Below are positions 3,634-59,043 of a stretch of DNA of 64,000 nt, one piece after another. This DNA comes from Minisyncoccota bacterium (GTDB lineage: Bacteria > Patescibacteriota > Patescibacteriia > SG8-24 > DYFX01). The notes beneath the pieces are model-generated. The model made no database searches. It worked only from the letters and a program-made list of their open reading frames with translations, and was not told the origin of the DNA. Both the position numbers and the translations under genes were made by a program. The stretch spans positions 1,555 to 65,554 of the forward strand of contig JBPOIQ010000002.1 in assembly GCA_052034355.1 (NCBI GenBank), written 5' to 3'. Numbering within the stretch: position 1 is the stretch's first letter; the number at the start of each line of letters is the position of its first letter.

Positions 3634-3734
3634 TCGAAAAACATCCTGCGCGATCGCGCAGGATACGCTAAACCGCCATCAAGGCTGGGTTTGCCCAGCT
3701 GCGAAGGAGGAGCAGCGTGCCCGGCAAGCGACGT

Positions 3735-3821
3735 GGGCAGTTACTCAAGCGGTCAACGAGGGCAGACTGTAAATCTGCTGGCCTTGTGCCTTCCAAGGTT
3801 CGAATCCTTGACTGCCCACCA
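3735..3821 (+). tRNA. tRNA-Tyr (anticodon GTA), type II with long variable arm
   Basis: GGGCAGT...GCAGACTGTAAATCTGC...long variable arm...AAGGTTCGAATCCTTG-ACTGCCC-A-CCA. Anticodon loop CTGTAAA. Confidence 0.85.
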
Positions 3822-3883
3822 GGGCATAGCGTTTCACGGGAGTGGAGCGCTGCGTCCTGCACGAAAAAACGGCGAAAGGCTGC

Positions 3884-3959
3884 GCCACCTTAGCTCAGCT
3901 GGTAGAGCACCAGTTTTGTAAACTGACGGTCCTGGGTTCGAGTCCCAGAGGTGGCTCCA
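3884..3959 (+). tRNA. tRNA-Thr (anticodon TGT)
   Basis: Acceptor GCCACCT/AGGTGGC, D-arm GCTC-AGCTGGTA-GAGC, anticodon loop TTTGTAA, T-arm CTGGG-TTCGAGT-CCCAG, CCA encoded. One A-C mismatch at the base of the anticodon stem. Confidence 0.8.
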
Positions 3960-5467: not shown

Positions 5468-5538
5468 CCGAGGCGGTACGAATCGAACCCACCACAAGGG
5501 TTTTGGAGACCCTTGTGATACCATTTCACCACGCCCCC
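5468..5538 (-). tRNA. tRNA-Trp (anticodon CCA) candidate with imperfect T-stem and acceptor pairing (possibly a low-scoring or pseudo tRNA)
   Basis: Minus strand reads GGGGGCG-TG-GTGA-AATGGTA-TCAC-A-AGGGT-CTCCAAA-ACCCT-TGTG-GTGGG-TTCGATT-CGTAC-CGCCTCG-G. D-arm and anticodon arm are canonical. The T-stem has one G-G mismatch and acceptor pair 1-72 is G-G. Confidence 0.45.
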
Positions 5539-9609: not shown

Positions 9610-9672
9610 GTCGTCGGTTTTTATATTGACGAAAACGGGTTTTCGGAGTAGACCTGTGACGGGAGGTAACCG

Positions 9673-23203: not shown

Positions 23204-23278
23204 CGGAATGTAGCTCAGCGGTAGAGCGCTCGCTTCGGGTGCGAGAGGCCGCAGGTTCAATCCCTGTCATTCCGACCA
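23204..23278 (+). tRNA. tRNA-Pro (anticodon CGG)
   Basis: Acceptor CGGAATG/CATTCCG, D-arm GCTC-AGCGGTA-GAGC, anticodon stem CTCGC/GCGAG with loop TTCGGGT, T-loop TTCAATC, CCA encoded. Confidence 0.85.
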
Positions 23279-23362: not shown

Positions 23363-24628
23363 ATGGATCTCTTCGACCTCAAAACTGAAAAAACCAAGGA
23401 ATCCCAGACGCCGCTCGCGGAACTTATGCGCCCGCGGATGCTCGACGACCTTGTCGGGCAAGAGGAGCTGGTCGGCGAGGGGTCGTCGTTACGCACGCTT
23501 TTGGAGTTGGATGCGGTCCCTTCGATGATTTTTTGGGGGCCGCCCGGAGTCGGCAAGACGACGCTTGCGAGAATCATCGCCGGCATGACCAAGTCGCGCT
23601 TCGTTTCGCTTTCGGCTACCAGTTCCGGCATTGCCGACTTGAAGCGCGCGGTTGAAGAGGCACGCGAACGCCGGGTGCTTCATGGCGACAAGACGATCGT
23701 CTTCGTCGACGAAATTCATCGCTGGAACAAGGCGCAGCAAGACGCGTTCCTGCCGCACGTCGAGGACGGCACGGTTACCCTGATCGGCGCCACGACGGAG
23801 AATCCTTCGATCGAAGTCAACAGCGCTTTGTTGTCGCGTTCGCGCGTGTTCGTACTCAAGGCGCTGACGGTTGAAGCGATCGAGGCGGTGCTTGATCGCG
23901 CGCTCGCGCTCGTGCAGGAACGAGGTGTGTATCCCTACAAAATTAAGCTCGACAAGGAGGCGGTGAAATACCTGGCGAGGATCGCGAATGGCGACGCGCG
24001 CTCGGCCTTGAACGGCCTGGAACTCGGACTACGCAGCGTTCGGCCGGACGCGAAAAACGTGGTATTCTTGAAGAAGGAAGCGCTGGCCAAAACGCTTCAA
24101 AAAAACCATCTCCTGTACGATCGCCAGGGCGAAGAGCACTACAACATCATCTCGGCGCTGCATAAGTCGATGCGCGGTTCCGATGCCGATGCCGCGCTCT
24201 ACTGGCTCGGCCGCATGCTCGAAGCGGGAGAGGATCCTCTGTATGTCGCACGTCGCATTGTGCGGTTCTCTTCGGAAGATATCGGACTCGCCGATCCGCA
24301 AGCGCTCGTGCAGTGCGTGGCCGCGTACCAGGCATGTCACCAGCTCGGAATGCCGGAGTGCAACGTGATCTTGGCGCAGGCCGTGGCATATTGCGCCCGC
24401 GCGCCGAAATCGAACGCGCTGTATGTCGGATATCAAAAAGTCCAGTCCGACATCCGCGAGTTTCCGAACGAGGGCGTGCCGCTCCATTTGCGGAACGCGC
24501 CGACCGCGCTCATGAAAAACGTCGGGTACGGTAAAGGCTATAAATACAATCCAGATTTCAAGGAGCCGGTCGAACAAGAGTATTTGCCGGCCGCATTGAA
24601 AGGAAGGAAGTATCTCGAAGATGTCTAA
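23363..24628 (+). CDS. rarA: replication-associated recombination protein A (AAA+ ATPase)
   Basis: FWGPPGVGKTTLARIIA Walker A, VFVDEIHRWNK Walker B/sensor, and the MgsA C-terminal helical domain. Confidence 0.85.
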   Translation: MDLFDLKTEKTKESQTPLAELMRPRMLDDLVGQEELVGEGSSLRTLLELDAVPSMIFWGPPGVGKTTLARIIAGMTKSRFVSLSATSSGIADLKRAVEEARERRVLHGDKTIVFVDEIHRWNKAQQDAFLPHVEDGTVTLIGATTENPSIEVNSALLSRSRVFVLKALTVEAIEAVLDRALALVQERGVYPYKIKLDKEAVKYLARIANGDARSALNGLELGLRSVRPDAKNVVFLKKEALAKTLQKNHLLYDRQGEEHYNIISALHKSMRGSDADAALYWLGRMLEAGEDPLYVARRIVRFSSEDIGLADPQALVQCVAAYQACHQLGMPECNVILAQAVAYCARAPKSNALYVGYQKVQSDIREFPNEGVPLHLRNAPTALMKNVGYGKGYKYNPDFKEPVEQEYLPAALKGRKYLEDV

Positions 24629-25802
24629 ACGCGCCATTATTCTCGGAGCGTTCGCGCTGGTCGCTGTCGCGACGGCTTTCTCTTTTTTGCGCGAACCCGA
24701 TCCGCAAGCCGTCCTTCGCCAGGCGGCGAAAAACGTGCTGGCGGAAAAATCGTTTCATCTCGACGTGCGCGGAACGATCGTCGGTTTGCCGAAAGGACTT
24801 GAGGGCGGCGTCGTAGCTGATGCGACGGGGGTCGACATGACCGCGAGTATGGATATCGATCGCACTGATCCGATGCGCCAAGCTTCGGTTTCGACCTTCG
24901 AATTGATGCAAGGCCTTTCGACGGGCGGTCAAGCCAAGCTTGCAGGTGAGGCGCGTCGCAAGAATGGCGTGCATTATCTGCGCCTCAGCGCGTTGGAAGG
25001 TGTTCAAGGTCTTGAAGCAAAGCGCATTGTCGGCACGTGGATGAAAGCTGGGCAGCCGTTTATCGACTTGTTGCTCGCTTCCGGCGCGCCGGAGCCGGAT
25101 ATGGATGCCTCCGAAGTAGAAGCGATGAAGCTTCGCGCGCGTTCGGTTGATCTGTTCACGGTCGTGAAAAAACTCCCGAACGAGACGGTTGCAGGCGCGA
25201 AATCGTTTCACTATGCGGTTGAGTTGAATATGGAGGTCGTTTCGGCGCTTCTTTTGAAGCGTCGGGAAATGCGGTTGGACCGGGAGATGACCTCCGAAGA
25301 CGTGCTGGCCGTCACGGAAGAGCTTCTGCAATGGAACCGGCCAGTTGGCGAAATTTGGGTTGATGCGCGCACGCGGAAGGTGAAACAGCTCACGCTGGGT
25401 ACCGCGCTTGGACAAGATGGTAAAGGAGGCGCTGCCGCCGCGACACTCACGTTTTCCAACGAGGGTAAACCCGTCACTATTCAGGTTCCGGAGGCGGAAG
25501 ACGTCGATAAGGTGCTCGGTCCGCTTTTTGAAAAACGCCTGAGCCTGTCTGGTTCGCGCGCCAAAACGCAAGGCTCCGCTGAAGCCGAGAAAGAAACCGC
25601 AACCGCTCTGCCCGTCCTTCCGGGGACGGCTGCACAAAATACCGACACCGACAACGATGGATTATCCGACGCGCAAGAAGCTTTTTACGGCGCTGATGCT
25701 TGGAATCCCGACACCGACGGCGACGGTTATATGGACGGTCTTGAGGTCGACAAAGGCATGAATCCGCTCGGTCCTGGGCCTTTGTTCGGATTCGGTCTAT
25801 GA
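24621..25802 (+). CDS. membrane-anchored hypothetical protein with C-terminal thrombospondin-type-3-like Ca-binding repeats
   Basis: N-terminal TM helix. C-terminus DTDNDGLSDAQEAFYGADAWNPDTDGDGYMDGLEVDKGMNP (DxDxDG repeats). Confidence 0.55.
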   Translation: MSKRAIILGAFALVAVATAFSFLREPDPQAVLRQAAKNVLAEKSFHLDVRGTIVGLPKGLEGGVVADATGVDMTASMDIDRTDPMRQASVSTFELMQGLSTGGQAKLAGEARRKNGVHYLRLSALEGVQGLEAKRIVGTWMKAGQPFIDLLLASGAPEPDMDASEVEAMKLRARSVDLFTVVKKLPNETVAGAKSFHYAVELNMEVVSALLLKRREMRLDREMTSEDVLAVTEELLQWNRPVGEIWVDARTRKVKQLTLGTALGQDGKGGAAAATLTFSNEGKPVTIQVPEAEDVDKVLGPLFEKRLSLSGSRAKTQGSAEAEKETATALPVLPGTAAQNTDTDNDGLSDAQEAFYGADAWNPDTDGDGYMDGLEVDKGMNPLGPGPLFGFGL

Positions 25803-31503: not shown

Positions 31504-34338
31504 ATGAGTAAAAACAAGTTTGAGAAATCGATAAGTTCGGACGAGCATATCCAGTCTGACCTGCAAGATGCTGGGATAAGCCGTCCAGACGAATGGAAGG
31601 AGGCGACGGATGTAGAAATAAAAGGGATGGAATTTGCGGGTGATGAGCTTTTTGAGGAGAGACGGGCAAATATTGCAGATATGATGGCACGTATCGTTGA
31701 GGGTGATCTTCAGTCAGGCGAAATCATCCGCGCTTCTCCTAATTTCCAGCGCGAGATTGCGACACAGTTCATCGAGAATTATCGGGGGTATGAAGTCGCC
31801 AAACATCTCGAAGTGTTCCCATGCCTCGACCACGGACAGCTAGCCCAGCGGCTCATTGCTGCCGGTCAAGGCGGCGTTGTCGCACGGTATCTCGACAAGT
31901 TCCAAGTCTCCGACCAGTCCATTGCCTGGCAGCTCATTGATGCTGGTTTTAGTAGGGAAGTCACTCAGCATCTCGACAAGTTCGACAACCTCAATCTTGC
32001 GCAGCTCGTCCTGCGGCTCATCGCTGAAAACAGTGCTGAGGATGATGATCACCGCCTAGACCTGCACCTCGACAATTTCCCGGGCCTCGACCGCCTGCAG
32101 CTAGCCCAGATGCTCATTGTTGACAGAAACGGCTGGTACGTTGTCCGACATCTCGACGAATTCCCAAGCCTCGACCACGGACAGCTCGCCCAGCAGCTCT
32201 TTGCTGCCGGAGAAGGTGCTGTTGTCGCCGGATACCTCGACAAGTTCCAAGGCCTCGGTCGTGAAAAGCTTGTCGAGCTCTTCCTGCTCGACTTGCCAGA
32301 AGGAATGCGTACGTCCGTCGCACCGTATTTCGGAGACTGGTTCGATGGTACGCGCCCAACCTTCGCGAATTTTTTCGCACAACTGAAAAAAATGGACGCT
32401 CTTGTTACAGAGCGTCCGGAGCTCGTGAAGGACCTCCTCGACCCCGCCATCAAAGCCCAGGGTATCGGAGCTTTTCGCGTCCTTGAATCCATCACTACAC
32501 TAGCCCAAGCTGGAGCCGTCGCTTCGCGCGAAGACAGCGCCATCCTCGCCCATATCGTAACCACCAAAGGTGTGCGTGCCAATGATGGCCTTCTTTTCCT
32601 CGTGGGTGGTCTTCGTGGTTCCGAAGGCGGCGGGTTTGTAGACGAAGAAGGGCAAGACATCGGTTGGCAGGCAGATCAGGCCTTTGCGGCGTCAAAAGAA
32701 TCGAGCAAACCTTTTTTCAAGACGCCTCTTTCTCAGAATCCCCACCTCGGCTCTTTCCTCGATTCCGGCATGCCCTTGATTGACACACTGTATAAAAAGC
32801 ATGAGGCAGTCATGACAGACGCCTCGCTCAATCCTACCGAAAGGAATCAAGCCCTGTCCGCGCTTCAAGAGCACATTCGCGTGTTGATCGAGCGAGTACG
32901 TGATGGCAAGATCGAAGAGGCTGATCTCCGCGACGACTCTTTCGTTGGCATCGTCTACCACGTCTTCCCGCCCGCCACGACGCTCGACCGCGGACAATAC
33001 CGGAACTTGCTTTCGTGTCGCCAAGACCGCAGTGCTGATCTGCCGGAAGCCTGGGGCTCGCTCAACGAGGCCTCCGAAGCGCGTCTTGAAGTCGCTCGCG
33101 GCGCCTGGGTTCTTAGGGAAGGTGAGCGAACGGACACGAACGCCTGGCGGTCATTGTCCGAAGCCATTCGCGACGTGAACACGAAGCCAATTGATCAGTG
33201 GAATGATGCTGCCGCGGCTCTCTCAGGCAAACGCCTCGTAGAGGCGCTTGGGAATCAGAAGGCTATGAACAAGGATCGCACCGACCTCCTCAAGGCGATC
33301 TACGCCTTCCACCGCTCAGCCAACGGCGCGACGCTCACGACCGACACATCCTCGCGGGAAGGGCTTCTCGAGATCAAGGAATACGCCGGCGATCGCATGA
33401 AGGATACCATTGACCTCCTTCTCAAGGCCTATGCCAACGCAGACCCGTCCGGTTACGAAAAAACTGTAAAAGAAGCGACGACGGTTTCCATTCAGGAGAA
33501 AGCCAAGAAGGGTATCTTCAAGCAGTTGCTGAACATCCTGGGTACGCTCTCTATGGACGCTGAAGAGACCAACATTCGCTTCAAAGCGGTCCTCGACCGC
33601 TATGGGATCCATGTGGAGGGCGACGCGCTTTCGGAGGTTCTCAAGGTTGTCGAAGGCATTCCCAACAATGACGACACAGCGCAAAGGAAAGCCGTCGAAC
33701 AATTCCTGAAAGGTCTTCTCGATGGCGCAGCGATGAGCCGCAACGCCGGCAAACTCTCCGTCGATATCACGAACCGTCTCATCGGCGACGACTACGCATC
33801 CATGCAGGAGGAGATGGGCCGGTATGAGTTTCAAGAGGACGCCGAGGGTAGCAAAGGCGACATCTTCCACTTAGAAGTCTCGAAGAAACGCGCCCACGCC
33901 GTCGCTGGCCTCAACATGGGTGTCTGCGTGGCTGTTGATGAGCAACTTTGGCAGAAGGAAACCTTTTCGAACGTCATCCTGTGGGATGCCGAAGGCACTG
34001 CTCGTGGTGGTATGCATTTCGAGATCGTCGAGGACGACAACAAGACTTATTTATCCCTGCCGGGCATCAACCCGTCGGGTTCCGCTATTGGCCAAGCTGG
34101 AGCCGAGAAGCTCTTCGATGGCATGCTTTCGTATGCCAAGGAAGCCGCACGCCGCATCGGAGCGGAGGCCGTCCTGATTCCGACTGCTTCGGTCATCCAC
34201 TCGAATCGTGCCGAGATGCAGTCCGTGCTTGCCTCGAAAGGGTACAAGACCCTCTCGCTTAAAAAAGGATCGCATGAGTTCTCATACGCGCCGCATCACT
34301 ACTCATGGAACGATGCATTCGTCGTTGAATTGGAGTGA
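31504..34338 (+). CDS. large hypothetical protein (944 aa) with N-proximal tandem ~28-aa repeats; low-GC gene
   Basis: Single long ORF preceded by a ~240-nt AT-richer gap. Six repeats of consensus HLDxFPxLDxxQLAQxLIxAGxGxVV. C-terminal ~150 aa have a GNAT-like pattern (LSLPGINPSGSAIGQAGAEKLFDGMLSYAKEAARRIGAEAVLI), which is only an inference. Confidence 0.6.
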   Translation: MSKNKFEKSISSDEHIQSDLQDAGISRPDEWKEATDVEIKGMEFAGDELFEERRANIADMMARIVEGDLQSGEIIRASPNFQREIATQFIENYRGYEVAKHLEVFPCLDHGQLAQRLIAAGQGGVVARYLDKFQVSDQSIAWQLIDAGFSREVTQHLDKFDNLNLAQLVLRLIAENSAEDDDHRLDLHLDNFPGLDRLQLAQMLIVDRNGWYVVRHLDEFPSLDHGQLAQQLFAAGEGAVVAGYLDKFQGLGREKLVELFLLDLPEGMRTSVAPYFGDWFDGTRPTFANFFAQLKKMDALVTERPELVKDLLDPAIKAQGIGAFRVLESITTLAQAGAVASREDSAILAHIVTTKGVRANDGLLFLVGGLRGSEGGGFVDEEGQDIGWQADQAFAASKESSKPFFKTPLSQNPHLGSFLDSGMPLIDTLYKKHEAVMTDASLNPTERNQALSALQEHIRVLIERVRDGKIEEADLRDDSFVGIVYHVFPPATTLDRGQYRNLLSCRQDRSADLPEAWGSLNEASEARLEVARGAWVLREGERTDTNAWRSLSEAIRDVNTKPIDQWNDAAAALSGKRLVEALGNQKAMNKDRTDLLKAIYAFHRSANGATLTTDTSSREGLLEIKEYAGDRMKDTIDLLLKAYANADPSGYEKTVKEATTVSIQEKAKKGIFKQLLNILGTLSMDAEETNIRFKAVLDRYGIHVEGDALSEVLKVVEGIPNNDDTAQRKAVEQFLKGLLDGAAMSRNAGKLSVDITNRLIGDDYASMQEEMGRYEFQEDAEGSKGDIFHLEVSKKRAHAVAGLNMGVCVAVDEQLWQKETFSNVILWDAEGTARGGMHFEIVEDDNKTYLSLPGINPSGSAIGQAGAEKLFDGMLSYAKEAARRIGAEAVLIPTASVIHSNRAEMQSVLASKGYKTLSLKKGSHEFSYAPHHYSWNDAFVVELE
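31801..32295 (+). repeat. degenerate tandem repeat array (~84-105 nt units) inside the 944-aa gene
   Basis: Visible at DNA level (e.g. cacggacagctagcccagcggctcattgctgccgg... / cacggacagctcgcccagcagctctttgctgccgg...) and as protein repeats. Confidence 0.7.
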
Positions 34339-35333: not shown

Positions 35334-35412
35334 TGGTACCGCGTAGGGGATTCGAACCCCTGATTTTCGCCGTGAGAAGGCGACGTCCTGGACCGGGCTA
35401 GACGAACGCGGC
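35334..35412 (-). tRNA. tRNA-Glu (anticodon CTC)
   Basis: Minus strand GCCGCGT-TC-GTC-TAGCCCGGTCCAG-GAC-G-TCGCC-TTCTCAC-GGCGA-...-AGGGG-TTCGAAT-CCCCT-ACGCGGT-A-CCA. Closely resembles bacterial tRNA-Glu. Confidence 0.8.
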
Positions 35413-47855: not shown

Positions 47856-48515
47856 CTATCGTGTAGAGGCGCGACAGAACGCGCACTCGCCGTGATGCAC
47901 GGCGCAGGGGAGGCACCACGCGGCTGCTTCCCCGGCGGTCCAATGACCGCACCGAGCGGCGCGGGTCATGGCCGGATGCCAGCGTGAGGGCCGCGGACAG
48001 TTCGCGCATCGGGCGGGAGGCGTGTCTCTCAGTATTTGGCCGAAGACCCTGCTCCAGATCGGTCGCTTGTGGCGGTAGTGGTAGATCTGGTGCGGCTGCA
48101 TGGAGTCGACGAGATCGAGCGGAATCGCCGCGATCTTCTCGGCCACGGCAGCCTCCGCCGGCGAGAAGCCGTCCTTGCTCGAGGCGAGCTTCTCGCGCAT
48201 GAGCTGCGCGGCCGACGTGATGCCGTAGGATTTCACCAGAGTCACGAAGGCGTCAAAGAGCGTCTCGAAGACGTCTTGGCGCTCCAGTTCCGTCTCCGAG
48301 AGCGTTGAAGCTCCGCAGGCCTGACATTCATTCTTGGACGCGGCGCATCTCTCGCACATCGAGTGCGTGTAGTAGACCAATTCGACGCGCGCGCCTCCGA
48401 TATGCGTGCAATACGGACAGTACACTCGCGGCGATCCGTCGCCCGGCGGTCGCGTCTTGTACTGCGCGATGCGCGCGTCCCAGTCGACCGACTTGCATGG
48501 GTTGCAGAGATGCAT
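47856..48515 (-). CDS. Cys-rich hypothetical protein (four CxxC pairs; zinc-ribbon-like) encoded antisense between dnaK and dnaJ
   Basis: N-terminal CNPC...CPYC...CERC...CQAC. The C-terminal third looks low-complexity, so the true 3' end may be shorter. Could still be a GC-driven artefact. Confidence 0.4.
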   Translation of the reverse strand: MHLCNPCKSVDWDARIAQYKTRPPGDGSPRVYCPYCTHIGGARVELVYYTHSMCERCAASKNECQACGASTLSETELERQDVFETLFDAFVTLVKSYGITSAAQLMREKLASSKDGFSPAEAAVAEKIAAIPLDLVDSMQPHQIYHYRHKRPIWSRVFGQILRDTPPARCANCPRPSRWHPAMTRAARCGHWTAGEAAAWCLPCAVHHGECAFCRASTR

Positions 48516-48592
48516 TACGCCCTCCTGTAGAATGAACGTTGATACACCAGGACTATCCTAATACCGCTTCGCCGTCAAGGCGCTTGCCTCGC

Positions 48593-49657
48593 ATGAGCAA
48601 AGACTACTACAAGATACTCGGCGTAGAAAAAAACGCCTCCGACGAGGAGATTAAAAAAGCGTTCCGAGTTTTGGCACATAAGCATCATCCGGACAAGGAA
48701 GGTGGGGACGAAGCGAAGTTCAAAGAAATCAACGAAGCGTACCAGGTCCTGTCGGATTCCAAGAAGCGCGCGCAGTACGACCAATTCGGTTCGGCCGGTC
48801 CAGGCTTCGGCGGCTTCGGTGGCCAGGGGTTTGGCGGCCAAGGCGCCAATTTCGACATGGGCGATTTGGGCGAGATGTTCGGCGACATGTTCGGCTTCGG
48901 CGGCCAGCGTGGGGGTCGACGCCAAGCGCGCGGCGGAGATATCGAAGTGAACGTGACGATTTCGTTCCACGACGCGGCGTTTGGCACGGAAAAAACGCTT
49001 GAGCTCTACAAGCCCGTTGCCTGCGGCGCGTGTTCCGGTACCGGTATCCCGCCAGGTTCGAAAATGATCACTTGCAAGACGTGCGGCGGCCAAGGCCGTG
49101 TGCGTCAGATGCAGCGCACGATCTTGGGCAGCTTCGAGGCGGTCACGACATGTGGCCAGTGCCGCGGTTCCGGCAATGTTCCGGAGAAAGAGTGCAAGGA
49201 GTGCGGTGGCGCGGGCGTGAAACGCGAGAAGACCTCGATGACGGTCAAAATTCCGGCCGGCATCGATCACGGAGAGACGATTCGCGTGCAGGGCGGCGGC
49301 GAAGCCGGTCCGCATGGTGCGCAGAACGGCGACTTGTATCTGCACATCCGCATCCAACCCGACACGCGTTTCGAACGCGATGGTTTTGACGTCTATTCGA
49401 ATCTTGAAATCGGCTTCGCCGACGCGGCGCTCGGTGCGGAGAAGGAAATTGAAACCCTCGACGGCGCGCTCACGATCAAGATCCCAGCAGGCGTCCAAGC
49501 GGGCGAAGAGATCCGCCTCAAGAATCGCGGCGTGACCCGTCTCCAGGCCTCCGGCCGCGGCGACCACTACGTCCGCGTGCGCATCCGCACGCCCAAGCAC
49601 CTTTCCAAAAAGGCAAAACAGCTCCTGGAAGATTTTCAGAGGGAAGAGAACGTCTAG
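48593..49657 (+). CDS. dnaJ: molecular chaperone DnaJ
   Basis: ATG 48593 ([11 protein letters not shown]...). J-domain HPD (HKHHPDK), Gly/Phe-rich region, four CxxCxGxG zinc-finger repeats ([32 protein letters not shown]), C-terminal domains. Confidence 0.9.
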
Positions 49658-49758: not shown

Positions 49759-52700
49759 ATGCGCATCGCCACGACCGACCGCAAGCTTTTCGTTTCGCTC
49801 GTTGCTTTTGTTGCGTTGGCTTTCGGTGCGGGCGCCGCTCACGCGCAATTCGCCGCGCCGACCTGCACGCCGCCGAACTGCAGTCCGGCTGTCATTCAGA
49901 ATATTCCGATTGCAAGCGGAGCGCAGAACGCGAGCATTAATATTACGGGCGACGCCAAAGTCGGCGCCACGTTTCAAGCGGGTGGAAGTACGCCTGTCTT
50001 GAACGCGTCTGGTCAAAATCTTTATTACGGAAACGTTGCGGGCACCTCTTCGGCTGGCAGTCTTTTGTTGCTCCAGTTCGGAGCCGCGGATCGTTTCCGT
50101 ATCGGCCTTACCGGTGACGTTACTTCGCAGGGTGTGTACTCTAGCGCGGCCGGAAGCGTCGGCGTGCCTTCGTATACGTTCAACGGTGATTCGAACACGG
50201 GTCTCTATTCGCTCGGCGCGGATGCGATTGGTGTTACGACTGGCGGCGTCAACCGTCTCATGATTAACAATGGCGGTGTATCGATTGGTACCGGTGTTTT
50301 GTATGCACCGGCCGGCACGGTGAGTGCGCCTGGCCTCTCCTTTAACGGTGATCCTGATACCGGCCTGTACAGGACTGCAGACAACGTCATGAACGTGGCA
50401 ACGAACGGTGTGCGCACGATGGTGTTCTCCGCCACGAACAGCGTTGTTGTTCCGGGCATGCTTCATGTGCAAGGAGGCTTGGATGCGAACCTTGGCGGCA
50501 ATGGAAGCGGCATCACCAACATCAATGCGAATAATATCACCTCCGGCACGTTGAATGATGCGCGCTTGTCTTCGAACGTCGCGTTGTTGAACCGCACGGG
50601 TCAGACCTTCACGGGTACAAATACGTTCAGCAGTCTGACAACGTTCGGTGCAAGCGCTGGACCGGTTATCTCGATCAACAACTCGGTTGGCGGCGTTGAA
50701 ATCGGCGGTATCAGCGAGAATGCTTTCAACTTTTATACGCAGGGTTCCATTTATAACCAGATCGACAGCAACAACAACTCGACCAACTCGTACTACTGGC
50801 TCAACGGAGCCGGTGCGAACGTCATGACGTTGGATGAAAGCGGCAACTTTGATGTCGAGGGTATGGTGACCTTGGGAAGCCCTGACATGCGGCTTTTGAA
50901 CCCAGGAGAGAATCTGATTTATGGAAACGTCGATCAATTCGCTGCTGGAAATATTCTGCTTTTGCAAGCGGAGTCCGTAGATCGTTTCAGTGTTGATGCT
51001 GATGGTAACGTTGTCGCAGCCGGCACGATAACGTCGTCCGGGCAAGCGGTCTGTCTCCAGAACGGCGCCAACTGCCCGCAGAGCGTCGGTGGATTTGGTA
51101 CTCCGAACGCACTTGCAAAATTCGATGCTTCAGGTTACGCGCTGACAAGTTCGTCAATTACGGATGACGGAGCCACGATCGGTGTCGGCGGCGCACCGAG
51201 CGCTAGCTATGCCATGACGGTGTACGGTGTCATCTATGCCAACGCGCTCTCGACGCCGAGAATTGATGCATATGCGCCTGGTGCTGGCGCTACGGCCATT
51301 TATGGTACAGCGGATGGTGCCGGATCGACGGGTATTTATGGTTCAGGTGCTTCAACCGGTATCTACGGAAGCTCGGCGGCAACGGGTGTCTATGGCCGCT
51401 CCACTGGAGCCGGCGCTGGTGTCTACGGTAGTTCGAGTTCGGGTTATGGTGGTGATTTCTCCTCGTTGCGTGTTGCGGGCGTTACCTTGTTTCAAGGCGG
51501 TGTGACGCTTGCGAACAGCACGACGCTGCAGCTGGGTCTTTCCGCGGTTGACGTCGGCGGCACGAACGGTCGCATGTATTACAACAGCACCACGAACAAG
51601 TTCCGCTGCTATGAAAACGGTTCGTGGCAGGACTGCCGCGACGGCGGCATGGGCGGAAGCGGTACGGTGAACACGATTCCGAAATTCACGGCCGCTTCAA
51701 CGATCGGAAACTCGACGTTGACCGACGATGGCGTAACTGTTACGGCTGCGCAAAACTTTGCGGTCAACGGCAATACAACGATCGGTAACGCGGCAGCGGA
51801 CACGTTGACGCTGACGGGAACTGCAGTTGCGACGCCGAACAACCTCAACATCGACGCGAACACACTGTATGTCGACGCGCTCAACAACCGCGTCGGCGTG
51901 GGCACTAACGCTCCAGGTACGACCTTGGCAGTGGCCGGAACGCTGGCCGTGACCGGGAACACGACGCTTGGCGATGCGGCGGCTGACCGCACGACGATCA
52001 ATGGCGAACTGGTTCTTGGAAGCCAGGCGACAAACCCTGCGGGCGTGAACGGTATGATGTTCTACAACTCGCTCAACAACAAGTTCCGCTGCTACGAAAA
52101 CGGAACTTGGATTAACTGCGGTGGAGAGGAGGATACGCTCGATACGGTTGCGGTGCGCGGCGCGATTGCCTACAGAAGCCTCGCGATTGATACGAATGGT
52201 GGCGGAACGTTCCTTGGAGGCGAGGCTCTGACGATCGAAGGAACCGGAACAGGCATCTATTCGAGCGCCACCGACTACGGCGTGCGCGGTAACACGACCG
52301 GCGTGAACGGTATCGGTGTCTGGGGTGGTGGCCAATTGTACGGAGGTTACTTCGGAGCGACGTCTGCTGCGGGGTATGCGGTTCGTGCGGATGCCTTCTC
52401 GGCGAACAACATTGCTGTCTATGCGCAAGGTCGCCTTCAAGTCACGCAGACCGCAGGTTTCGGCGGTGCTGCGCCTTCCGCCGCGTATGGTATCCAAACG
52501 CAGGGTAACTACGGCATTGTGAGCTACGGGCAAGGTGCCAATAACGCGAACTACGGCGGTTACCTCTATGGTAGCGGCGCCACAACGGCCAACTACGGTG
52601 TGGCGGCCTACGGTATCGGCGGCACGACGGCCTATGGTGTCCTCGCGTACGCACAAGGCGGCACGAACAACTACGCGTTGTACGCGACACTTGGTTCCAT

Positions 52701-53286
52701 CCGTACCACTTGCGCCACGAACGACTCTGAAACGGACAGCATCGTTTGCGAAGACATCGCCGAAGTCTACGAGACGGGCGAGCATACCGAACCCGGCGAC
52801 GTGATCGTGTGGAGGCCGGACGTCGACAACAAAGTCTACAAGTCGCGAAAACCGTACGAAGACGGCATCGCCGGCATCTACTCGACTTCCCCGGGCGTGC
52901 TCATGGGTAACCAGGATGTCAACGGCAAGTACGGCGTCGAATTAGGTAACGCGAACACGGCTGAGACGATCAAGAAACTCGGCTCGACGCATGCGGCGGT
53001 CGCTTTGGCCGGGCGCGTACCCGTCAAAGTCACGCTCGAAGGCGGCGCGATCAAACCCGGAGATCTTCTCACCAGCTCTTCGAAAGCCGGTTATGCGATG
53101 AAGGCAAGCAAAACAGGTCGCGTCGTCTGCATGGCGATGGAGTCGTTCGATGAGTATTCGAAGGGCGACAAGGTCATGTGCTATGTCAATCCACACCAGT
53201 GGGTTGATCCGCGCGAGTACGACGGCCTCAAGTCAGACTTGGAGAGCATGAAGGCCGATATCGAAGCGCTGAAAGCGAAAAAGTAA
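49759..53286 (+). CDS. giant secreted repeat protein (1175 aa) with phage-tail-fibre-type repeats and Gly/Thr/Asn-rich beta-rich body
   Basis: Signal peptide MRIATTDRKLFVSLVAFVALAFGAGAAHA. Repeats ...GVPSYTFNGDSNTGLYSLGADAIGVTTGGVNRLMI... / ...APGLSFNGDPDTGLYRTADNVMNVATNGVRTMVF.... Long G-Y-G-rich repeats (YGGYLYGSGATTANYGVAAYGIGGTTAYG). C-terminal coiled-coil-like tail. The minus-strand ORFs 49750..51045 and 51697..52785 are antisense to it. Confidence 0.75.
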   Translation: MRIATTDRKLFVSLVAFVALAFGAGAAHAQFAAPTCTPPNCSPAVIQNIPIASGAQNASINITGDAKVGATFQAGGSTPVLNASGQNLYYGNVAGTSSAGSLLLLQFGAADRFRIGLTGDVTSQGVYSSAAGSVGVPSYTFNGDSNTGLYSLGADAIGVTTGGVNRLMINNGGVSIGTGVLYAPAGTVSAPGLSFNGDPDTGLYRTADNVMNVATNGVRTMVFSATNSVVVPGMLHVQGGLDANLGGNGSGITNINANNITSGTLNDARLSSNVALLNRTGQTFTGTNTFSSLTTFGASAGPVISINNSVGGVEIGGISENAFNFYTQGSIYNQIDSNNNSTNSYYWLNGAGANVMTLDESGNFDVEGMVTLGSPDMRLLNPGENLIYGNVDQFAAGNILLLQAESVDRFSVDADGNVVAAGTITSSGQAVCLQNGANCPQSVGGFGTPNALAKFDASGYALTSSSITDDGATIGVGGAPSASYAMTVYGVIYANALSTPRIDAYAPGAGATAIYGTADGAGSTGIYGSGASTGIYGSSAATGVYGRSTGAGAGVYGSSSSGYGGDFSSLRVAGVTLFQGGVTLANSTTLQLGLSAVDVGGTNGRMYYNSTTNKFRCYENGSWQDCRDGGMGGSGTVNTIPKFTAASTIGNSTLTDDGVTVTAAQNFAVNGNTTIGNAAADTLTLTGTAVATPNNLNIDANTLYVDALNNRVGVGTNAPGTTLAVAGTLAVTGNTTLGDAAADRTTINGELVLGSQATNPAGVNGMMFYNSLNNKFRCYENGTWINCGGEEDTLDTVAVRGAIAYRSLAIDTNGGGTFLGGEALTIEGTGTGIYSSATDYGVRGNTTGVNGIGVWGGGQLYGGYFGATSAAGYAVRADAFSANNIAVYAQGRLQVTQTAGFGGAAPSAAYGIQTQGNYGIVSYGQGANNANYGGYLYGSGATTANYGVAAYGIGGTTAYGVLAYAQGGTNNYALYATLGSIRTTCATNDSETDSIVCEDIAEVYETGEHTEPGDVIVWRPDVDNKVYKSRKPYEDGIAGIYSTSPGVLMGNQDVNGKYGVELGNANTAETIKKLGSTHAAVALAGRVPVKVTLEGGAIKPGDLLTSSSKAGYAMKASKTGRVVCMAMESFDEYSKGDKVMCYVNPHQWVDPREYDGLKSDLESMKADIEALKAKK

Positions 53287-53300
53287 TCTCATGAGGCAAA

Positions 53301-53332
53301 CAAAAATCGCTCCTGTTTGGGAGCGATTTTTG
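53301..53332. terminator. bidirectional intrinsic terminator
   Basis: AAAAATCGCTCC-tgtttg-GGAGCGATTTTT, symmetric. Serves the converging genes ending at 53286 (+) and 53335 (-). Confidence 0.75.
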
Positions 53333-53334
53333 TG

Positions 53335-53940
53335 TTACGGATTGGTCGGCGGGGCCGTAGGGGGCGTGAATGCCGACGTGGGTTCCGGGAAGGCGACGGC
53401 GACTTCCGTCGCTTCGAAGGAGGTCGCGCGGAGGATGTCCGCTCCTGCCGTCACGGTGATGAGTTCTCCGACTTTGATATCCGCGAGCGCGATGGTTTGC
53501 TGCTGCATGAGCGATGGCGGCGGAAGCGGGCGGCCGCTTTCGTCTGCGCGCGGTCGGGACGTCTCTTCGTCGATCTCTGCCTGAGTTTTTGGCACCAGGC
53601 GGTACACTTTCGTTCCAGAGGCGATCGTTACGTTTCTTTCTTTCGGCGCATTGATCGTCTCAAGCGGGTTCGAAGTGGTAAGATCCGCTTCGAAGGTGAG
53701 TGTGTTTCCCGAGATGTCTTTGACTCGTCCGGTCAGGACGCGTGTTTCAGTCAGTGCCGGCGGGAGAAGCCCGGAATCGGCCAGTTTTTTCTGGGCGGCG
53801 GCGTACCCTTCCTCATAACTTCCTTTGCCCAAGGAAAGGGGATTGATGGGCGTACCGGTCGAGACGCGTCCGGTTCCGTAGCCGGCCACGAAACCCACGG
53901 CCAAGCCGGCAAGGGCCAGAGCCGCTTTCTTCATGTCCAT
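53335..53940 (-). CDS. secreted hypothetical protein
   Basis: Signal peptide MDMKKAALALAGLAVGFVAGYG. Pro-rich C-terminus. Confidence 0.5.
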   Translation of the reverse strand: MDMKKAALALAGLAVGFVAGYGTGRVSTGTPINPLSLGKGSYEEGYAAAQKKLADSGLLPPALTETRVLTGRVKDISGNTLTFEADLTTSNPLETINAPKERNVTIASGTKVYRLVPKTQAEIDEETSRPRADESGRPLPPPSLMQQQTIALADIKVGELITVTAGADILRATSFEATEVAVAFPEPTSAFTPPTAPPTNP

Positions 53941-53985: not shown

Positions 53986-55359
53986 ATGCAGCTCTACGAT
54001 TCTCTGAGCAAAAAAACGAAGCAGTTTCCCGAAGAAAGCGTCGGTCCAGTGACGATCTACGCCTGCGGCCCCACGGTCTACCACTATGCTTCGATCGGAA
54101 ACCTCAGGACCTTTTTGACGACGGATACGCTTCGCCGGTATTTGGAATATCGAGGCCGCGAAGTGCGACTGGTGATGAATATCACCGACGTCGGGCATAT
54201 GCTGAACGACGCCGATGTCGGCGAAGATAAATTGGAGGTCGCGGCGGCGAAGGAAGGGAAAACGCCCGAGGAGATCGCGCGGTTCTACGAGGAAATTTTT
54301 TTCCGCGACATGGACGCGCTCGGATTCAAGCGCGCATGGAAGCACCCGCGCGCCACGGAACATATTCCGCAAATGGTGGCGCTGGTCGAAAAACTTCTCG
54401 AAGAGGGTCATGCCTACGTCACGGAAAAAGGCGACGTGTATTTCGACGTCGCTTCGTTTGCTGGATACGGAAAGCTCTCCGGTAACTCCGTCGAGGATCT
54501 TGTTGCTGGTGCGCGCGTCGAGGTGAAAGACGATAAAAAGCATCCGGCGGACTTCGCGCTTTGGATCCAGAATCCGAATCACGTCATGCAATGGAAAGGC
54601 CCGCGCGGCATTCAGGGTTACCCCGGTTGGCACCTCGAGTGCTCGGCGATGGCAAAAGAGTATCTTGGCGACACGCTGAGCTTGCATGTCGGCGGCGAAG
54701 ATTTGAAATTTCCGCACCACGAATGCGAAATCGCCCAGTCCGAAAGCGCCAATCATGCGCCTTTTTCGCGCCACTGGCTACACGTCTCATTTCTCCTGGT
54801 CGAAGGAGAAAAAATGTCGAAGTCGAAAGGGAACACCTACACGCTCTCCGACCTTGTCGCGAAAGGCTACTCGCCCGAAGCGGTGCGTTTCCTGCTGCTT
54901 TCCTCCCACTATCGCACGCAATTTAACTTCACGTTCGACGGTCTCAAGGCTGCCGAGCGGACGCTTGCCCAGATGAGAGCCGTTGCGGAAACCTTCGCAT
55001 CCGCGGAGTCCGTGAAGGGTTCATATGAGGAACGGTTGATCGAGGCGATGGATACCGACCTGAACGTCTCGGCGGTCTTGGCGCTCGCGCATGAATTCAT
55101 GACGGAAGCGAACAAGGGTATGATCGATCAAAAGGAGGGTGCTTCCTTCCTGCGCGCTTTCGACACGATCTTCGGTCTCAAACTTTTTGAAGTACGGGCT
55201 CAGGAAATTCCCGAAACCGTGCAGGCGCTTGCTCAAATGCGTATTGAAGCGCGCGTAAACAAGGACTGGACCGCCTCCGATCGTTTGCGTGACGAGATCG
55301 CCGCCAAAGGTTGGGTCGTTGAAGATACGCCGCAAGGACAAAAATTGAAAAAGGCGTAG
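53986..55359 (+). CDS. cysS: cysteine--tRNA ligase
   Basis: HIGN-type motif region ([19 protein letters not shown]), KMSKS motif (KMSKSKGN), WHLECS zinc site. Confidence 0.9.
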
Positions 55360-56080: not shown

Positions 56081-56593
56081 TTGGAAGGTTCAGTGACGCA
56101 CTGCTCGCAGTATAGGTATGCTATACTAAAGAAGTCAACGCCTATGCCGCCAGGAGCGCCTACGCCCGGTTTTGAAGAGGTTCCGGCGATTCCGGAGCAA
56201 CGCAACGAGGTTCCCGAAACCGGGGCCTCATTTGAGTCTTCTCAACCCGCTGTTGAACAACCTCCGGAAACCGTACCGGTCGTGCAAGATGTGCCGGTAT
56301 CGGCACCGGTTGCGCCGGCTCCGAAAGATCCATCCGTGCGCGCCGTCGAGCATATTCTTGAAGAAGACTTGGGCGACGCATTTCACAAGATGACGCCGGA
56401 GTTGCAAATCAAGTTCCGAAAAGAGGGCGAGCGCATCACGTCGATCATTGTGACGATGGTGCGCAATGCCAAAGTGAACGCGCGCGTCGTTTTGAAACTG
56501 ATCGCGACGTGGCTCAAGATGATTCCCGGCGTCAATCATTTTTTTCTGGCGCAAGAAGCCAAGATCAAGACCGATAAGATCTTGAAGCTATGA
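56081..56593 (+). CDS. hypothetical protein with Pro/Glu/Val-rich N-terminus; translationally coupled to the downstream ATPase
   Basis: Stop overlaps the start of the 56590 gene (ATGA). The likely start is the internal Met (MPPGAPTPGF...). Confidence 0.4.
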   Translation: MEGSVTHCSQYRYAILKKSTPMPPGAPTPGFEEVPAIPEQRNEVPETGASFESSQPAVEQPPETVPVVQDVPVSAPVAPAPKDPSVRAVEHILEEDLGDAFHKMTPELQIKFRKEGERITSIIVTMVRNAKVNARVVLKLIATWLKMIPGVNHFFLAQEAKIKTDKILKL

Positions 56594-59043
56594 ACCCGTT
56601 CCAGTTTCCCGATCTTTTCCCGTTCCTTCTGCCGGTCGTACCGTTCGTGATCGGCGTCTTCGCGTTCCTGATCGTGCTCAGAATCGTCCGTCGTGTGCTC
56701 ACGGCGCGGGCCGAAATCGCGCGCGGCTTCGACAACGTCGTCATGTTGGTCACGGTACCGAAAGAGTCCGGGGAAAAGGATGGTGGACAGCGCGACAAGT
56801 CGCTTCAGGAAATCCAGGCCGCGATCGCCGTGGCCGAAGGCGTTTTCAAGAGCGTCGGCGGATTGAAAGCCGAGCACGGATTCCGCGCCTGGCTCGCGGG
56901 ACGCGGCGACGTGATCGCTTTTGAAATCGTCGCGACTGGCGGCCTCGTTTCGTTTTACATTTCCGCACCGAGGCGCTTCCGGGAATTCGTCGAGCAGCAG
57001 GTGCACGCCCAGTATCCTCTCGCTCAAATCGAAGAAGTTTCCGATTACAACGTTTTTCAGCCGAAAGGCACGATCGCGAGTGCGCACCTCGTGTTTGGTC
57101 GCGAGAATTTCTTTCCGCTGCATACCTACAAGAAGCTTGAAACCGATCCGCTCAACGCGCTGACGAACGCTCTGGCGAAAGTCGAAGCGGGGGATGGCGC
57201 CGCGATCCAGATTTTGGTTCGTTCGGCGCCGAAGGTCTGGCGCGAAAAAGGCGTGAAGATCGCTTCGCTCATGCAGCAAGGGCGTTCGTACGATCAGGCG
57301 CGCAAGGGTTCGAGCCTCATTAAGCACGGAACCCAGGAAGAAAAGACGGGGGAGAAGGCCAAGGAATACCGTCTGTCGCCGCTTGAGGAGCAGATGGTGA
57401 AGTCTATCGAGGAGAAAGTCGGACAGCTCGGTCTCGACGCCAATATCAACCTAGTCGCTTCGTCTCCGACCCCCGGGCGTGCGGAACTTGTCTTGGGGAA
57501 CCTGATCGGTGCTTTCAATCAGTTTTCGAGCCCTCAGTACGGCAACGCATTTAAGCGCGTGAGCGAAGGGAAGAGCCGTATCGTCAGCGATTTTATCTTG
57601 CGCGTCTTTCATGATAAGCGCCGCATGGTGCTGACCCCGGACGAGCTCGCGAGCCTCTGGCATCTCCCGCTGACATCGACGGAAACGCCGAACATCCGCT
57701 GGCTCACCGCGCGCAAAGCGCCGCCGCCGTCGAACCTTCCGAAGGAAGGAACGCTTTTGGGTATCATCAAATACCGAGGACAAGAGCATCCGGTACGCAT
57801 CAAGGCGGCGGATCGTCGACGCCACATGTACATCATCGGTAAATCCGGCTCCGGTAAATCCGAGTTCATCAAGGCGATGGTGCGTCAGGATATCGAGGCG
57901 GGACGCGGCGTCTGCGTCATCGATCCACATGGCGACTTGGCGCAGGATTGCCTCGCGTTCGTGCCTAAACAGCGCGCGGACGACGTTATTTATTTCTCGC
58001 CGGCCGATTCCGAGCGGCCGATGGGTTTGAACCTGCTTGAGTACGACGAGCGCTATCCTGAGCAGAAGACGTTCGTGATCAACGAGATGCTCAAGATTTT
58101 TGACAAGCTCTACGACCTCAAGTCGACGGGCGGTCCGATGTTCGAGCAGTACATGAGAAACGCCATGATTCTCGTCATGGACGATCCGGCTTCCGGATCG
58201 ACGCTCATGGAAATTCCGAGAGTCCTGTCCGACGAGCGTTTCCGCGCGTACAAACTGTCGAAGTGCAAGACGCAGGTCGTGAAGGATTTCTGGCTGAAGG
58301 AAGCGTCGAAGGCCGGCGGCGAGGCCTCGCTCGCGAACATGGTGCCGTACATCACCTCGAAGCTCACGCCATTCATCACGAACGATATCGTCAGGCCGAT
58401 CATCGGTCAGCAGAAGAGCGCGATTAACGTGCGCGAGGCGATGGATCAGCAGAAGATCTTGTTACTCGATCTGTCGAAGGGTAAGCTTGGCGACCTGAAT
58501 GCCTACCTGATCGGCATGGTCTTGGTCGGAAAGATTCTTATGGCTGCGCTCTCGCGCACCGACCTTTCCGCCGAAGAGCGCAAGGACTTCTACCTCTACA
58601 TCGACGAGTTCCAGAACTTCATCACGGATTCGATCGCCACGATTCTTTCGGAAGCGCGCAAGTACGGACTCGATCTCACGATCGCGCACCAATACATCGG
58701 ACAAATCTCGCAAAAGGGGGATACGGCGATTCGCGATGCGGTCTTCGGCAACGTCGGTACGATGATCGCGTTCCGCGTCGGTCCGGAAGACGCAGACTTC
58801 CTCGGCAAAGAATTCGCGCCGGTCTTCACGCCGTTCGATCTCGTGAACGTCGAGGCATATACCGCGAATGCCAAGCTCTTGATCGACAATACGGCGTCTC
58901 GTCCGTTCAATATGGCGATGGCGCCCATTCGGAAGCCGGACACCCGCCTCACAGCGGCTATCAAGCAGCTCTCGCGTCTCAAATACGGACGCGACCGCGA
59001 GATCGTCGAAGCGGAAATTCGCGAACGCTTGAGATTTATTTAA
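56590..59043 (+). CDS. VirD4/TraD/TraG-like type IV coupling-protein-family ATPase (DUF87/HerA-like P-loop), membrane anchored
   Basis: N-terminal TM helices. Walker A YIIGKSGSGKSEF, CVIDPHGDL, Walker B-like LYIDEFQNF, TIAHQYIGQ. 817 aa. Confidence 0.6.
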   Translation: MNPFQFPDLFPFLLPVVPFVIGVFAFLIVLRIVRRVLTARAEIARGFDNVVMLVTVPKESGEKDGGQRDKSLQEIQAAIAVAEGVFKSVGGLKAEHGFRAWLAGRGDVIAFEIVATGGLVSFYISAPRRFREFVEQQVHAQYPLAQIEEVSDYNVFQPKGTIASAHLVFGRENFFPLHTYKKLETDPLNALTNALAKVEAGDGAAIQILVRSAPKVWREKGVKIASLMQQGRSYDQARKGSSLIKHGTQEEKTGEKAKEYRLSPLEEQMVKSIEEKVGQLGLDANINLVASSPTPGRAELVLGNLIGAFNQFSSPQYGNAFKRVSEGKSRIVSDFILRVFHDKRRMVLTPDELASLWHLPLTSTETPNIRWLTARKAPPPSNLPKEGTLLGIIKYRGQEHPVRIKAADRRRHMYIIGKSGSGKSEFIKAMVRQDIEAGRGVCVIDPHGDLAQDCLAFVPKQRADDVIYFSPADSERPMGLNLLEYDERYPEQKTFVINEMLKIFDKLYDLKSTGGPMFEQYMRNAMILVMDDPASGSTLMEIPRVLSDERFRAYKLSKCKTQVVKDFWLKEASKAGGEASLANMVPYITSKLTPFITNDIVRPIIGQQKSAINVREAMDQQKILLLDLSKGKLGDLNAYLIGMVLVGKILMAALSRTDLSAEERKDFYLYIDEFQNFITDSIATILSEARKYGLDLTIAHQYIGQISQKGDTAIRDAVFGNVGTMIAFRVGPEDADFLGKEFAPVFTPFDLVNVEAYTANAKLLIDNTASRPFNMAMAPIRKPDTRLTAAIKQLSRLKYGRDREIVEAEIRERLRFI

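Follow-up and report, generated by a model that had tools for sequence, protein, structure and literature searches.

The closest described counterparts of the gene analyzed here are the mosaic adhesive trimer (MAT) fibres of the predator Bdellovibrio bacteriovorus (Caulton et al. 2024, PMC10769870). These have a signal peptide, a conserved N-domain of approximately 130 amino acids (aa) without a homologue in the PDB, a trimeric fibre and S74 or other tips; they have been found experimentally on the surface of the predator cell, where they bind prey glycans, and self-cleavage of an S74 domain in a cellular fibre has been demonstrated for Bd3182, the model of which is ~55 nm long (PMC10769870). 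The table of other taxa in the same paper holds Omnitrophica and several predators, without Patescibacteria and without any G2-type tip (PMC10769870). Cultivated members of the Patescibacteria, or candidate phyla radiation (CPR), are obligate episymbionts (PMC12206443), and mainly type IV pili and unnamed adhesins have so far been implicated in how they find their host cells and stay attached to them (PMC12206443, PMC11665869). In the present work we analyze a stretch of 64,000 nucleotides, referred to as the window, from a Minisyncoccota bacterium of the ultra-small Patescibacteria (contig JBPOIQ010000002.1), and in particular a gene at 49759..53286 on the plus strand with a product of 1175 aa, the fibre protein. 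We consider it probable that this gene encodes a Sec-exported homotrimeric surface fibre with a conserved proximal anchor, an exchangeable receptor-binding tip and autoproteolytic maturation, serving attachment to a host or partner cell.

The likeness to MAT fibres has several components. Both are encoded by the cell and not by a prophage, and in both the signal peptide leads into a conserved N-domain of about 100-130 aa; each is a long fibre that shows features of phage tail fibres and has C-terminal tips that can be exchanged, an autoproteolytic S74 domain ending many members; and both come from bacteria living on other cells. They differ in number, Bdellovibrio having 21 paralogues whereas the genomes studied here have one copy each as judged by the anchor motif, and in that the MAT paper describes S74 and non-chaperone tips, with no mention found of a chaperone of the G2/phi29 type (PMC10769870). 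By analogy the fibre in the window may work like a MAT fibre, but we do not file it as a member. Bdellovibrio is diderm, and Patescibacteria are thought to have a different envelope. The new element is a MAT-like fibre from another phylum whose conserved N-terminus is distinct and whose chaperone is of the G2 type and not S74; S74-bearing orthologues already carry the automatic annotation "tail fiber domain-containing". Literature searches returned no paper in which tail-fibre-like or S74/G2 fibres are connected with Patescibacteria.

Among phage proteins, gp12 of phi29 (Peptidase_G2, PF11962; PDB 3gqh, 6qz9) has a D-x-A-E motif at the start of the crystallised 3gqh fragment, and the fibre protein has the same motif at the same position; in both the domain ends a fibre or spike protein, gp12 being trimeric and the fibre protein predicted to be so. 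In contrast to gp12, the domain in the window contains an insertion of 28 residues and has an extra coiled coil at its terminus. Outside the domain, the protein bears no relation to the beta-helix of the gp12 tailspike, and with its predicted Sec export it must fold outside the cytoplasm. The Peptidase_S74 fibres, such as endosialidase K1F, the T5 L-shaped tail fibre and MyRF, follow the same functional logic of a C-terminal trimerisation chaperone removed by self-cleavage, and S74 ends 17 same-locus orthologues, but the fibre protein itself is without S74 and its chaperone is of unrelated fold. As in phage receptor-binding proteins, a conserved N-terminus is combined with a distal cassette exchanged at a conserved junction; here, however, the conserved part is presumed to attach to the cell envelope and not to a baseplate. 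Exchange of the distal cassette can be likened to the host-range switching of such phage proteins.

Mosaic structure of the fibre family

A search with the whole protein gave 69 matches, approximately 30 of which have the N-terminus AQF..P.C.PP.C.P.VIQNI and come from metagenome-assembled genomes (MAGs) of Patescibacteria. Several of these orthologues are called "tail fiber domain-containing protein" by NCBI because they carry Peptidase_S74. Among 25 aligned family proteins, the window protein included, PF13884 (Peptidase_S74) together with the SDxRxK motif was present in 17 (P0003-5, 10-12, 14-21, 24, 26, 29), and the family profile matches the S74 structures 6f45 and MyRF 7dc3. Five proteins have a G2-like domain, namely the window protein (P0001), P0002, P0006, P0007 and P0008. 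Since the window protein shows neither a PF13884 match nor the SDxRxK motif, it is not an S74 protein. A first-pass annotation, made by a model from the sequence alone, had suggested looking for a chaperone domain, and the search was rewarding: S74 ends most orthologues, and a G2-like chaperone, invisible to Pfam, ends the window protein.

The mosaic was mapped as sliding-window identity to the window protein, using 50-residue windows. The S74-type proteins P0003, P0004 and P0005 are 46-96% identical to it until approximately aa 800 and 12-50% thereafter, while the G2-type P0002 and P0006 are 78-94% identical over aa 950-1150, with the middle of P0006 falling to 12-60%. The break lies after a junction, (E/A)DTL(D/E)(T/S)VAxRG, which is common to both cassette types and predicted helical. 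In the window protein this junction is EEDTLDTVAVRG, aa 790-801 (52126..52161, +), with a predicted helix at 794-801, and it marks the putative boundary of cassette exchange, identity to the S74-type orthologues dropping here from 60-90% to 12-50%. The distal shaft and tip that follow, aa 802-996 (52162..52746, +), contain Gly/Tyr repeats with a period of 13-14 residues, as seen from composition and periodicity, and co-vary in the identity profile with the type of the C-terminal domain; they are proposed to be the receptor-binding part that is exposed after cleavage. A beta-solenoid or trimer fold may be expected for aa 802-996, a region where the monomer model is unreliable.

It is clear that the family has a mosaic structure in which a variable C-terminal tip sits on a conserved scaffold, with G2-like and S74 cassettes in same-locus orthologues. 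From the identity break at approximately aa 800 it follows that shaft, tip and chaperone, the distal ~375 residues, act together as a cassette that can be exchanged. Judged from these alignments, the proximal ~800 residues appear to be inherited vertically with the locus and the distal cassette to be exchanged between lineages, and two unrelated self-cleaving chaperone modules appear to replace one another in orthologous cellular genes. Because two unrelated chaperone-proteases fill the same position in orthologues, the shaft presumably needs a trimerisation chaperone, as an obligate trimer would, and we regard this alternation as the strongest indirect argument for an obligate trimeric shaft. 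The appendage proteins of phi29-like phages alternate chaperone types likewise, with G2 in phi29 and S74 in GA-1.

The putative C-terminal chaperone domain

The decisive phage-type feature of the fibre protein is its C-terminus, where aa 997-1151 (52747..53211, +) form a putative intramolecular chaperone/autocleavage domain of the phi29-gp12 (Peptidase_G2-like) type. An AlphaFold2 model of aa 977-1175 was confident, with a predicted local distance difference test (pLDDT) of 86 and a predicted template modelling score (pTM) of 0.80, and a Foldseek comparison of the C-terminal domain with viral models returned pre-neck appendage, tail protein and tail fiber at E 1e-9 to 1e-3. In the model, aa 997-1151 take up the fold of the gp12 C-terminal autochaperone fragment. 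The predicted scissile bond lies between E998 and D999, at the D999-I-A-E1002 motif (52753..52764, +), and was placed from family conservation and the alignment with gp12. Among 26 family members D999 and A1001 do not vary, and at least 90% have E1002; the D-x-A-E motif aligns to S691-D692-F-A-E695 of phi29 gp12, D999 corresponding to residue 1 of the crystallised 3gqh fragment (DFAEYFE). The Pfam family Peptidase_G2 ("IMC autoproteolytic cleavage domain") was weakly matched by 4 of the 26 domain relatives, with a best E of 7.8e-4. The protein ends with an amphipathic helix or short coiled coil, aa 1152-1175 (53212..53283, +), which is helix 175-198 of the domain model (pLDDT 97). The heptad pattern L1157/L1161/M1164/I1168/L1171 can be read directly in this 24-residue helix, and a coiled coil also ends the S74-type orthologues.

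The conserved pattern of the domain, D-x-A-E ... GDVV ... ALAGRVPVKV ... GD.LT.S..G.AMKA, was found in 73 proteins in a first search. That search was word-indexed and missed P0001, P0002 and P0008, short queries against long proteins being poorly detected. A search of this kind with the N-terminal 135 aa gave no match at all, the identical protein included, which reflects the same limitation and not absence. A HMMER scan of 1.84 billion cluster representatives with a profile of the G2-like domain gave 31,963 matches at E<=1e-3, 25,870 at E<=1e-10 and 4,381 at E<=1e-30. Many of the best matches are very large proteins (2,000-5,766 aa), often with the domain several hundred residues before the C-terminus. 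When 10 top matches were sampled, four had an organism name and all four were Patescibacteria (Woesebacteria, Falkowbacteria and one "Patescibacteria group bacterium"); the best short matches came from Omnitrophota, Woesearchaeota and Uhrbacteria. The DxAE / ALAGRVPVKV domain, at 52747-53211 of the window and in proteins P0143-P0292, therefore stands for a very large family barely detected by Pfam, and the scan exposes what is probably a very large branch of the phi29-gp12 chaperone domain family that is essentially unannotated there. A match in the PDB to the GhpA "grappling hook" was dropped as noise, no single stretch passing the threshold alone.

The phi29 appendage, whose C-terminal domain type the fibre protein shares, recognises wall teichoic acid (PMC11476376), and one distant relative, P0038, has a pectate-lyase-type domain (PF12708). 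The fibre protein could accordingly be imagined as a secreted or surface-bound tailspike-like enzyme, a polysaccharide or teichoic-acid depolymerase that degrades the envelope of a partner cell, much as phi29 gp12 acts on wall teichoic acid, with binding as a secondary property. We find this quite improbable, as neither an enzymatic domain nor a beta-helix of the pectate-lyase type was detected in this protein or in the 24 proteins closest to it, and the shaft consists of short Gly/Tyr repeats together with Cys-loop modules and not of a long right-handed beta-helix.

Gene, signal peptide and locus

The gene consists of a 1175-aa open reading frame (ORF) with an ATG start and its stop codon at 49759..53286 (+), exactly the coordinates and length given in the first-pass annotation. 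The same protein, identical in sequence, occurs on 4 contigs that stem from several sequencing runs within one project, so that both an assembly artefact and a pseudogene can be dismissed. The start MRIxTxxRK is kept in the orthologues. In base composition the gene resembles its surroundings and the rest of the window.

In the N-terminus, MRIATTDRKLFVSLVAFVALAFGAGAAHA followed by QF, the n-region is charged, the core hydrophobic and an AxA motif present, which by direct reading is the n/h/c layout of a Sec signal. A Sec-type signal peptide is thus predicted for aa 1-29 (49759..49845, +), as the first-pass annotation had proposed, with a putative signal-peptidase-I site between AHA and QF; A29, Q30 and F31 are invariant or nearly so across 25 relatives.

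The gene lies directly downstream of dnaJ (48539-49657), which ends 101 nt before it, and is followed by a convergent 201-aa gene on the minus strand (m201, 53335-53940) and by cysS (53986-55359). The first-pass annotation had the fibre gene alone between dnaJ and cysS with a terminator of its own; the terminator is there, but the gene is not alone, the 201-aa gene being situated between it and cysS. The terminator is a bidirectional hairpin at 53300..53333 between the two convergent genes and was found by RNA folding (15 bp, dG -22.4 kcal/mol, z -5.24, with none of 200 shuffles equally stable). A simple terminator scan did not detect it because the T-run forms part of the stem.

Genomic contexts were examined for the closest relatives and for 10 loci from a scan of 185,579 species genomes, covering at least 10 different Patescibacteria genomes, and the complete 1.17-Mb chromosome CP129476.1 is among the genomes with the fibre locus. 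In every locus recovered the fibre gene follows dnaJ directly, one of them having a 169-aa gene in between, and the 201-aa gene and cysS are found downstream wherever the contig reaches that far. The full block is hrcA-grpE-hsp20-dnaK-x-dnaJ-FIBRE-m201-cysS-x-x-(817-aa DUF8128/TraG-like ATPase)-x-dnaX, and it is conserved from a DnaK identity of 98% and a DnaJ identity of 95% down to 88% for DnaK and 69-72% for DnaJ. A single locus per genome matched the N-terminal motif in the scan of species genomes, and tblastn of the fibre protein against the window gave no paralogue. The annotated flanks of the orthologous loci, up to 10 kb on each side, hold housekeeping genes only and no phage gene, phage structural genes included. 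Among the window ORFs scanned (20 by Pfam, 10 by PHROGs, two by both) there is likewise no capsid, terminase or integrase, in agreement with the first-pass annotation. The other ORFs scanned are housekeeping genes, coding for an M16 peptidase, triosephosphate isomerase, two penicillin-binding proteins (PBPs), a histidine kinase, MgsA, a Ser/Thr kinase, Dus, a P-type ATPase, a DEAD helicase and a lipoprotein with tetratricopeptide repeats (TPR).

These observations bear on whether the gene is the remnant of a prophage or tailocin, either a tail-fibre gene left behind or the fibre belonging to a phage-tail-like particle encoded elsewhere. The tail-fibre repeats, the phage-type C-terminal chaperone and the NCBI name of the orthologues all point in that direction. 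We nevertheless find such an origin very improbable, because the same dnaJ-[fibre]-cysS slot is occupied in at least 10 Patescibacteria genomes, at roughly 70-95% DnaJ identity. Besides, phage structural genes are missing from the orthologue flanks and the scanned window ORFs, the ORF is intact and identical across samples, and its base composition is like that of the rest of the window. Virion and tailocin fibres are assembled in the cytoplasm, where a Sec signal peptide is not expected, and to our knowledge virion fibres lack signal peptides. The prophage-remnant reading was consequently rejected as largely refuted by the conserved locus and the housekeeping neighbourhood, while the fixed locus, the housekeeping flanks and the signal peptide support the suggestion, already made at first pass, of a surface fibre owned by the cell.

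N-terminal domain and shaft repeats

The best-conserved stretch of the fibre protein in the alignment of relatives is aa 30-130 (49846..50148, +), which starts with QFAAPTCTPPNCSPAVIQNI, contains two invariant Cys and continues into a NLxYGNV...LLLLQ...DRF module. The signature AQFxxPxCxPPxCxPxVIQNI is common to the orthologues, and identity among them is 72-96% over aa 1-100 as opposed to 12-60% distally. No Pfam, PDB or PHROG match was obtained for this domain, and we propose that it is the cell-proximal part that would anchor the fibre to the cell surface.

It is followed by two repeats of tail-fibre type, aa 131-235 (50149..50463, +), beginning with VPSYTFNGDSNTGLY and APGLSFNGDPDTGLY and appearing as beta-strands in the monomer model (pLDDT 50-66). 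The motif xPSYTFNGDxxTGLY described at first pass occurs twice, at aa 137-150 and 190-204. The only PHROG family found, PHROG 28766 "tail fiber protein", matches these two repeats (E 1.5e-7, 2 stretches), and a tblastn search of 50,697 phage genomes gave a single match, to the tail fiber of Synechococcus phage S-LBS1 (aa 90-178, 40% identity, E 8e-5). The tail-fibre resemblance claimed for the whole protein consequently holds for approximately 100 of the 1175 residues plus the C-terminal domain, the rest not being demonstrably phage-fibre-like, and by its sequence the fibre protein appears only a little phage-like.

Further repeats, additional to those in the first-pass annotation, are the NLxYGNV and Cys-loop modules. 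The first NLxYGNV..LLLLQ..DRF copy is at aa 85-125 and a second one, NLxYGNV...LLLQ...DRF...G, can be read directly at aa 383-423 (50905..51027, +); the module is threefold in orthologue P0008. The Cys-loop modules have the consensus GxNGxMxYNSxxNKFRCYENGxWxxC and are found at aa 601-626 (GTNGRMYYNSTTNKFRCYENGSWQDC, 51559..51636, +) and aa 762-787 (GVNGMMFYNSLNNKFRCYENGTWINC, 52042..52119, +). Both are seen in the DNA as well, as direct repeat D3 with 72% identity between the copies, and the second is the best-modelled internal part of the protein (pLDDT 66-84, compared with 63-73 for the first). A first Gly/Tyr-rich repeat region, aa 480-570 (51196..51468, +), is built of STGIYGSGA-type units of about 9 residues, with autocorrelation peaks at 9 and 18 residues. 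The Gly-Tyr-rich repeats noticed at first pass are indeed evident from composition (19% G and 8% Y in aa 440-620, 23% G and 10% Y in aa 800-980) and from autocorrelation, with a period of about 9 residues at aa 505-560 and of 13-14 residues at aa 905-980. Self-BLAST of the fibre protein showed no internal repeats, because they are too short or too diverged for it, but they were seen by eye, by DNA repeat search and by autocorrelation. A diversity-generating retroelement was not found: the window has no template/variable repeat pair, and none of the scanned ORFs codes for a reverse transcriptase.

A Gly-rich period of 14 residues recalls the repeats of the YadA head, and one of the C-terminal-domain relatives has a marginal YadA_head match (E 0.098), so a trimeric autotransporter or another classical adhesin (YadA-like, RTX) was considered. 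This is extremely improbable, as Pfam and NCBIfam gave no match to a YadA anchor, head or stalk or to RTX, and the C-terminus consists of a chaperone domain and a coiled coil and not of a beta-barrel anchor. Searches of Pfam, NCBIfam and the PDB with the whole sequence gave nothing useful.

Another candidate is a structural surface-coat or S-layer-type protein, which would be abundant and fast-evolving, with a conserved wall-binding N-terminus and without a specific role in cell binding. A signal peptide, a conserved N-terminus, a variable remainder and a strong terminator are typical of S-layer genes and are all present here, as is an apparently single-copy gene at a fixed locus among housekeeping genes. 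Still, we judge this to be unlikely, since neither Pfam nor NCBIfam gave an S-layer or S-layer homology (SLH) match, phage tail-fibre repeats are present, and the G2 and S74 chaperone-proteases are known from trimeric fibres and spikes and not from lattice proteins. The first-pass annotation had named a well-known S-layer or autotransporter family as the finding that would speak against a fibre, and no match to such a family was found.

Proposed function of the fibre

Taken as a Sec-exported surface fibre, the protein could mature as follows. The signal peptide would take the unfolded chain across the membrane via Sec, after which the G2-like chaperone and the terminal coiled coil would align three chains and the Gly/Tyr-rich beta shaft would fold from the C-terminus. 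The chaperone would then cleave itself between E998 and D999, baring the distal tip as the ligand-binding end, and the invariant N-terminal domain (aa 30-130) would retain the fibre on the cell surface. Trimerisation and cleavage are suggested by homology to gp12 of phi29 and by S74 taking the corresponding place in the orthologues. By analogy, the most likely function is recognition of, or attachment to, a host or partner cell; we infer such binding because cultivated Patescibacteria are obligate episymbionts and because the MAT fibres provide a precedent.

Several points weigh against this interpretation. The assignment of aa 997-1151 to the Peptidase_G2 or gp12 type is mainly by predicted fold: the profile matches the gp12 sequence weakly (E 0.16) and over the first 60 residues only, and PF11962 gave no match at E<=1 for the whole fibre protein or the excised domain (gathering score not reached). 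The known anchoring motifs LPXTG, SLH and lipobox are absent from the protein. The full-length monomer model is poor (pLDDT 43.7 overall and 30-46 in the N-domain), which leaves the fold of the shaft poorly defined and is why this model was kept out of the fold searches. In the same comparisons identity is 83-98% for the core genes on either side and 56-69% for the fibre, even where it is conserved, but three small neighbours (x219, m201 and x223) diverge as fast as the fibre gene, so its fast divergence is not strong evidence for selection or an arms race. Maturation of phi29 gp12 reportedly involved ATP (Xiang et al. 2009, Mol Cell), which is absent outside the cell. Finally, trimer formation, autocleavage, surface anchoring and adhesion are inferred, whereas the ORF, the domain fold, the conserved synteny and the mosaic structure have been shown.

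If a fibre of this kind is what the gene encodes, it provides a concrete candidate for a receptor-binding fibre of Patescibacteria, with one gene, a fixed locus, a conserved anchor and a swappable tip, and it suggests that phage-like mosaic fibres as in Bdellovibrio are a solution also used by an unrelated, episymbiotic phylum. A bolder extension, which we regard as rather doubtful, is that the fibre is the main host-recognition device of the lineage, that the cassette, chaperone type included, is swapped by recombination for host specificity, and that the G2-like domain is a general ATP-independent extracellular folding module of large CPR surface proteins. If true, a single gene could tell the host range of uncultured episymbionts and perhaps allow it to be re-engineered.

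Neighbouring genes and other features of the window

The 201-aa m201 protein has an N-terminal membrane helix and no family match; its gene is convergent to the fibre gene in every genome extending past it, with 35-69% identity. That it is a partner of the fibre is pure speculation. In S74-type loci a gene for a predicted lipoprotein of 172 aa comes right after the fibre gene (L001, 13493-14011; L003, 13538-14056; 65% identical between the two genomes). Neither the window nor L004, the other G2-type locus extending past the fibre gene, has this gene, which may travel with the S74 cassette. The 172-aa gene and the 169-aa gene next to P0008 were discarded as co-varying partners of the fibre, as they are mutually unrelated and both absent from the window.

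Between dnaK and dnaJ lies a Cys-rich ORF of 219 aa (47856-48515, -) with several CxxC pairs and no family match. An ORF is found in this position in every related locus covering the interval except L008, where tblastn detected none, and identity between genomes is 30-48%. Situated 3.3 kb downstream of the fibre gene, the 817-aa DUF8128 / DUF87 / TraG-TrwB-like ATPase (56590-59043, +) resembles the coupling protein of type IV secretion systems (T4SS). It is unusually conserved, with 82-93% identity across the clade and a match to PHROG 5156 (E 7e-71), and it may be part of the Patescibacteria T4SS discussed in bioRxiv 10.1101/2025.01.22.634366. Seven of the MAGs with related loci (L008-L013, L015) are titled "uncultured Gammaproteobacteria bacterium". 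Because their gene order and their DnaK and DnaJ, at 70-98% identity, match Patescibacteria genomes, this label is probably a deposit error.

Elsewhere in the window, a 944-aa ORF (31504-34338, +) contains repeats of approximately 27-28 residues, HLDKF..L...QLAQ.LIAAG.G.VVARYLDKF, which correspond to the DNA repeat families D1/D2, and has no Pfam or PHROG match. The longest ORF at 9169-11796 (-), of 875 aa, has the look of an antisense artefact due to high GC content, and the plausible gene at this position is on the plus strand at 9673-11799, coding for a 708-aa lipoprotein with TPR-like repeats. Adjoining a PBP2-type transpeptidase, a 393-aa ORF (24621-25802, +) has bacterial thrombospondin type-3 (calcium-binding) repeats and may encode another surface protein. 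A cluster of three tRNAs is located at 3558-3956 (+), and further tRNAs at 5468-5538 (-), 23204-23275 (+) and 35337-35412 (-).

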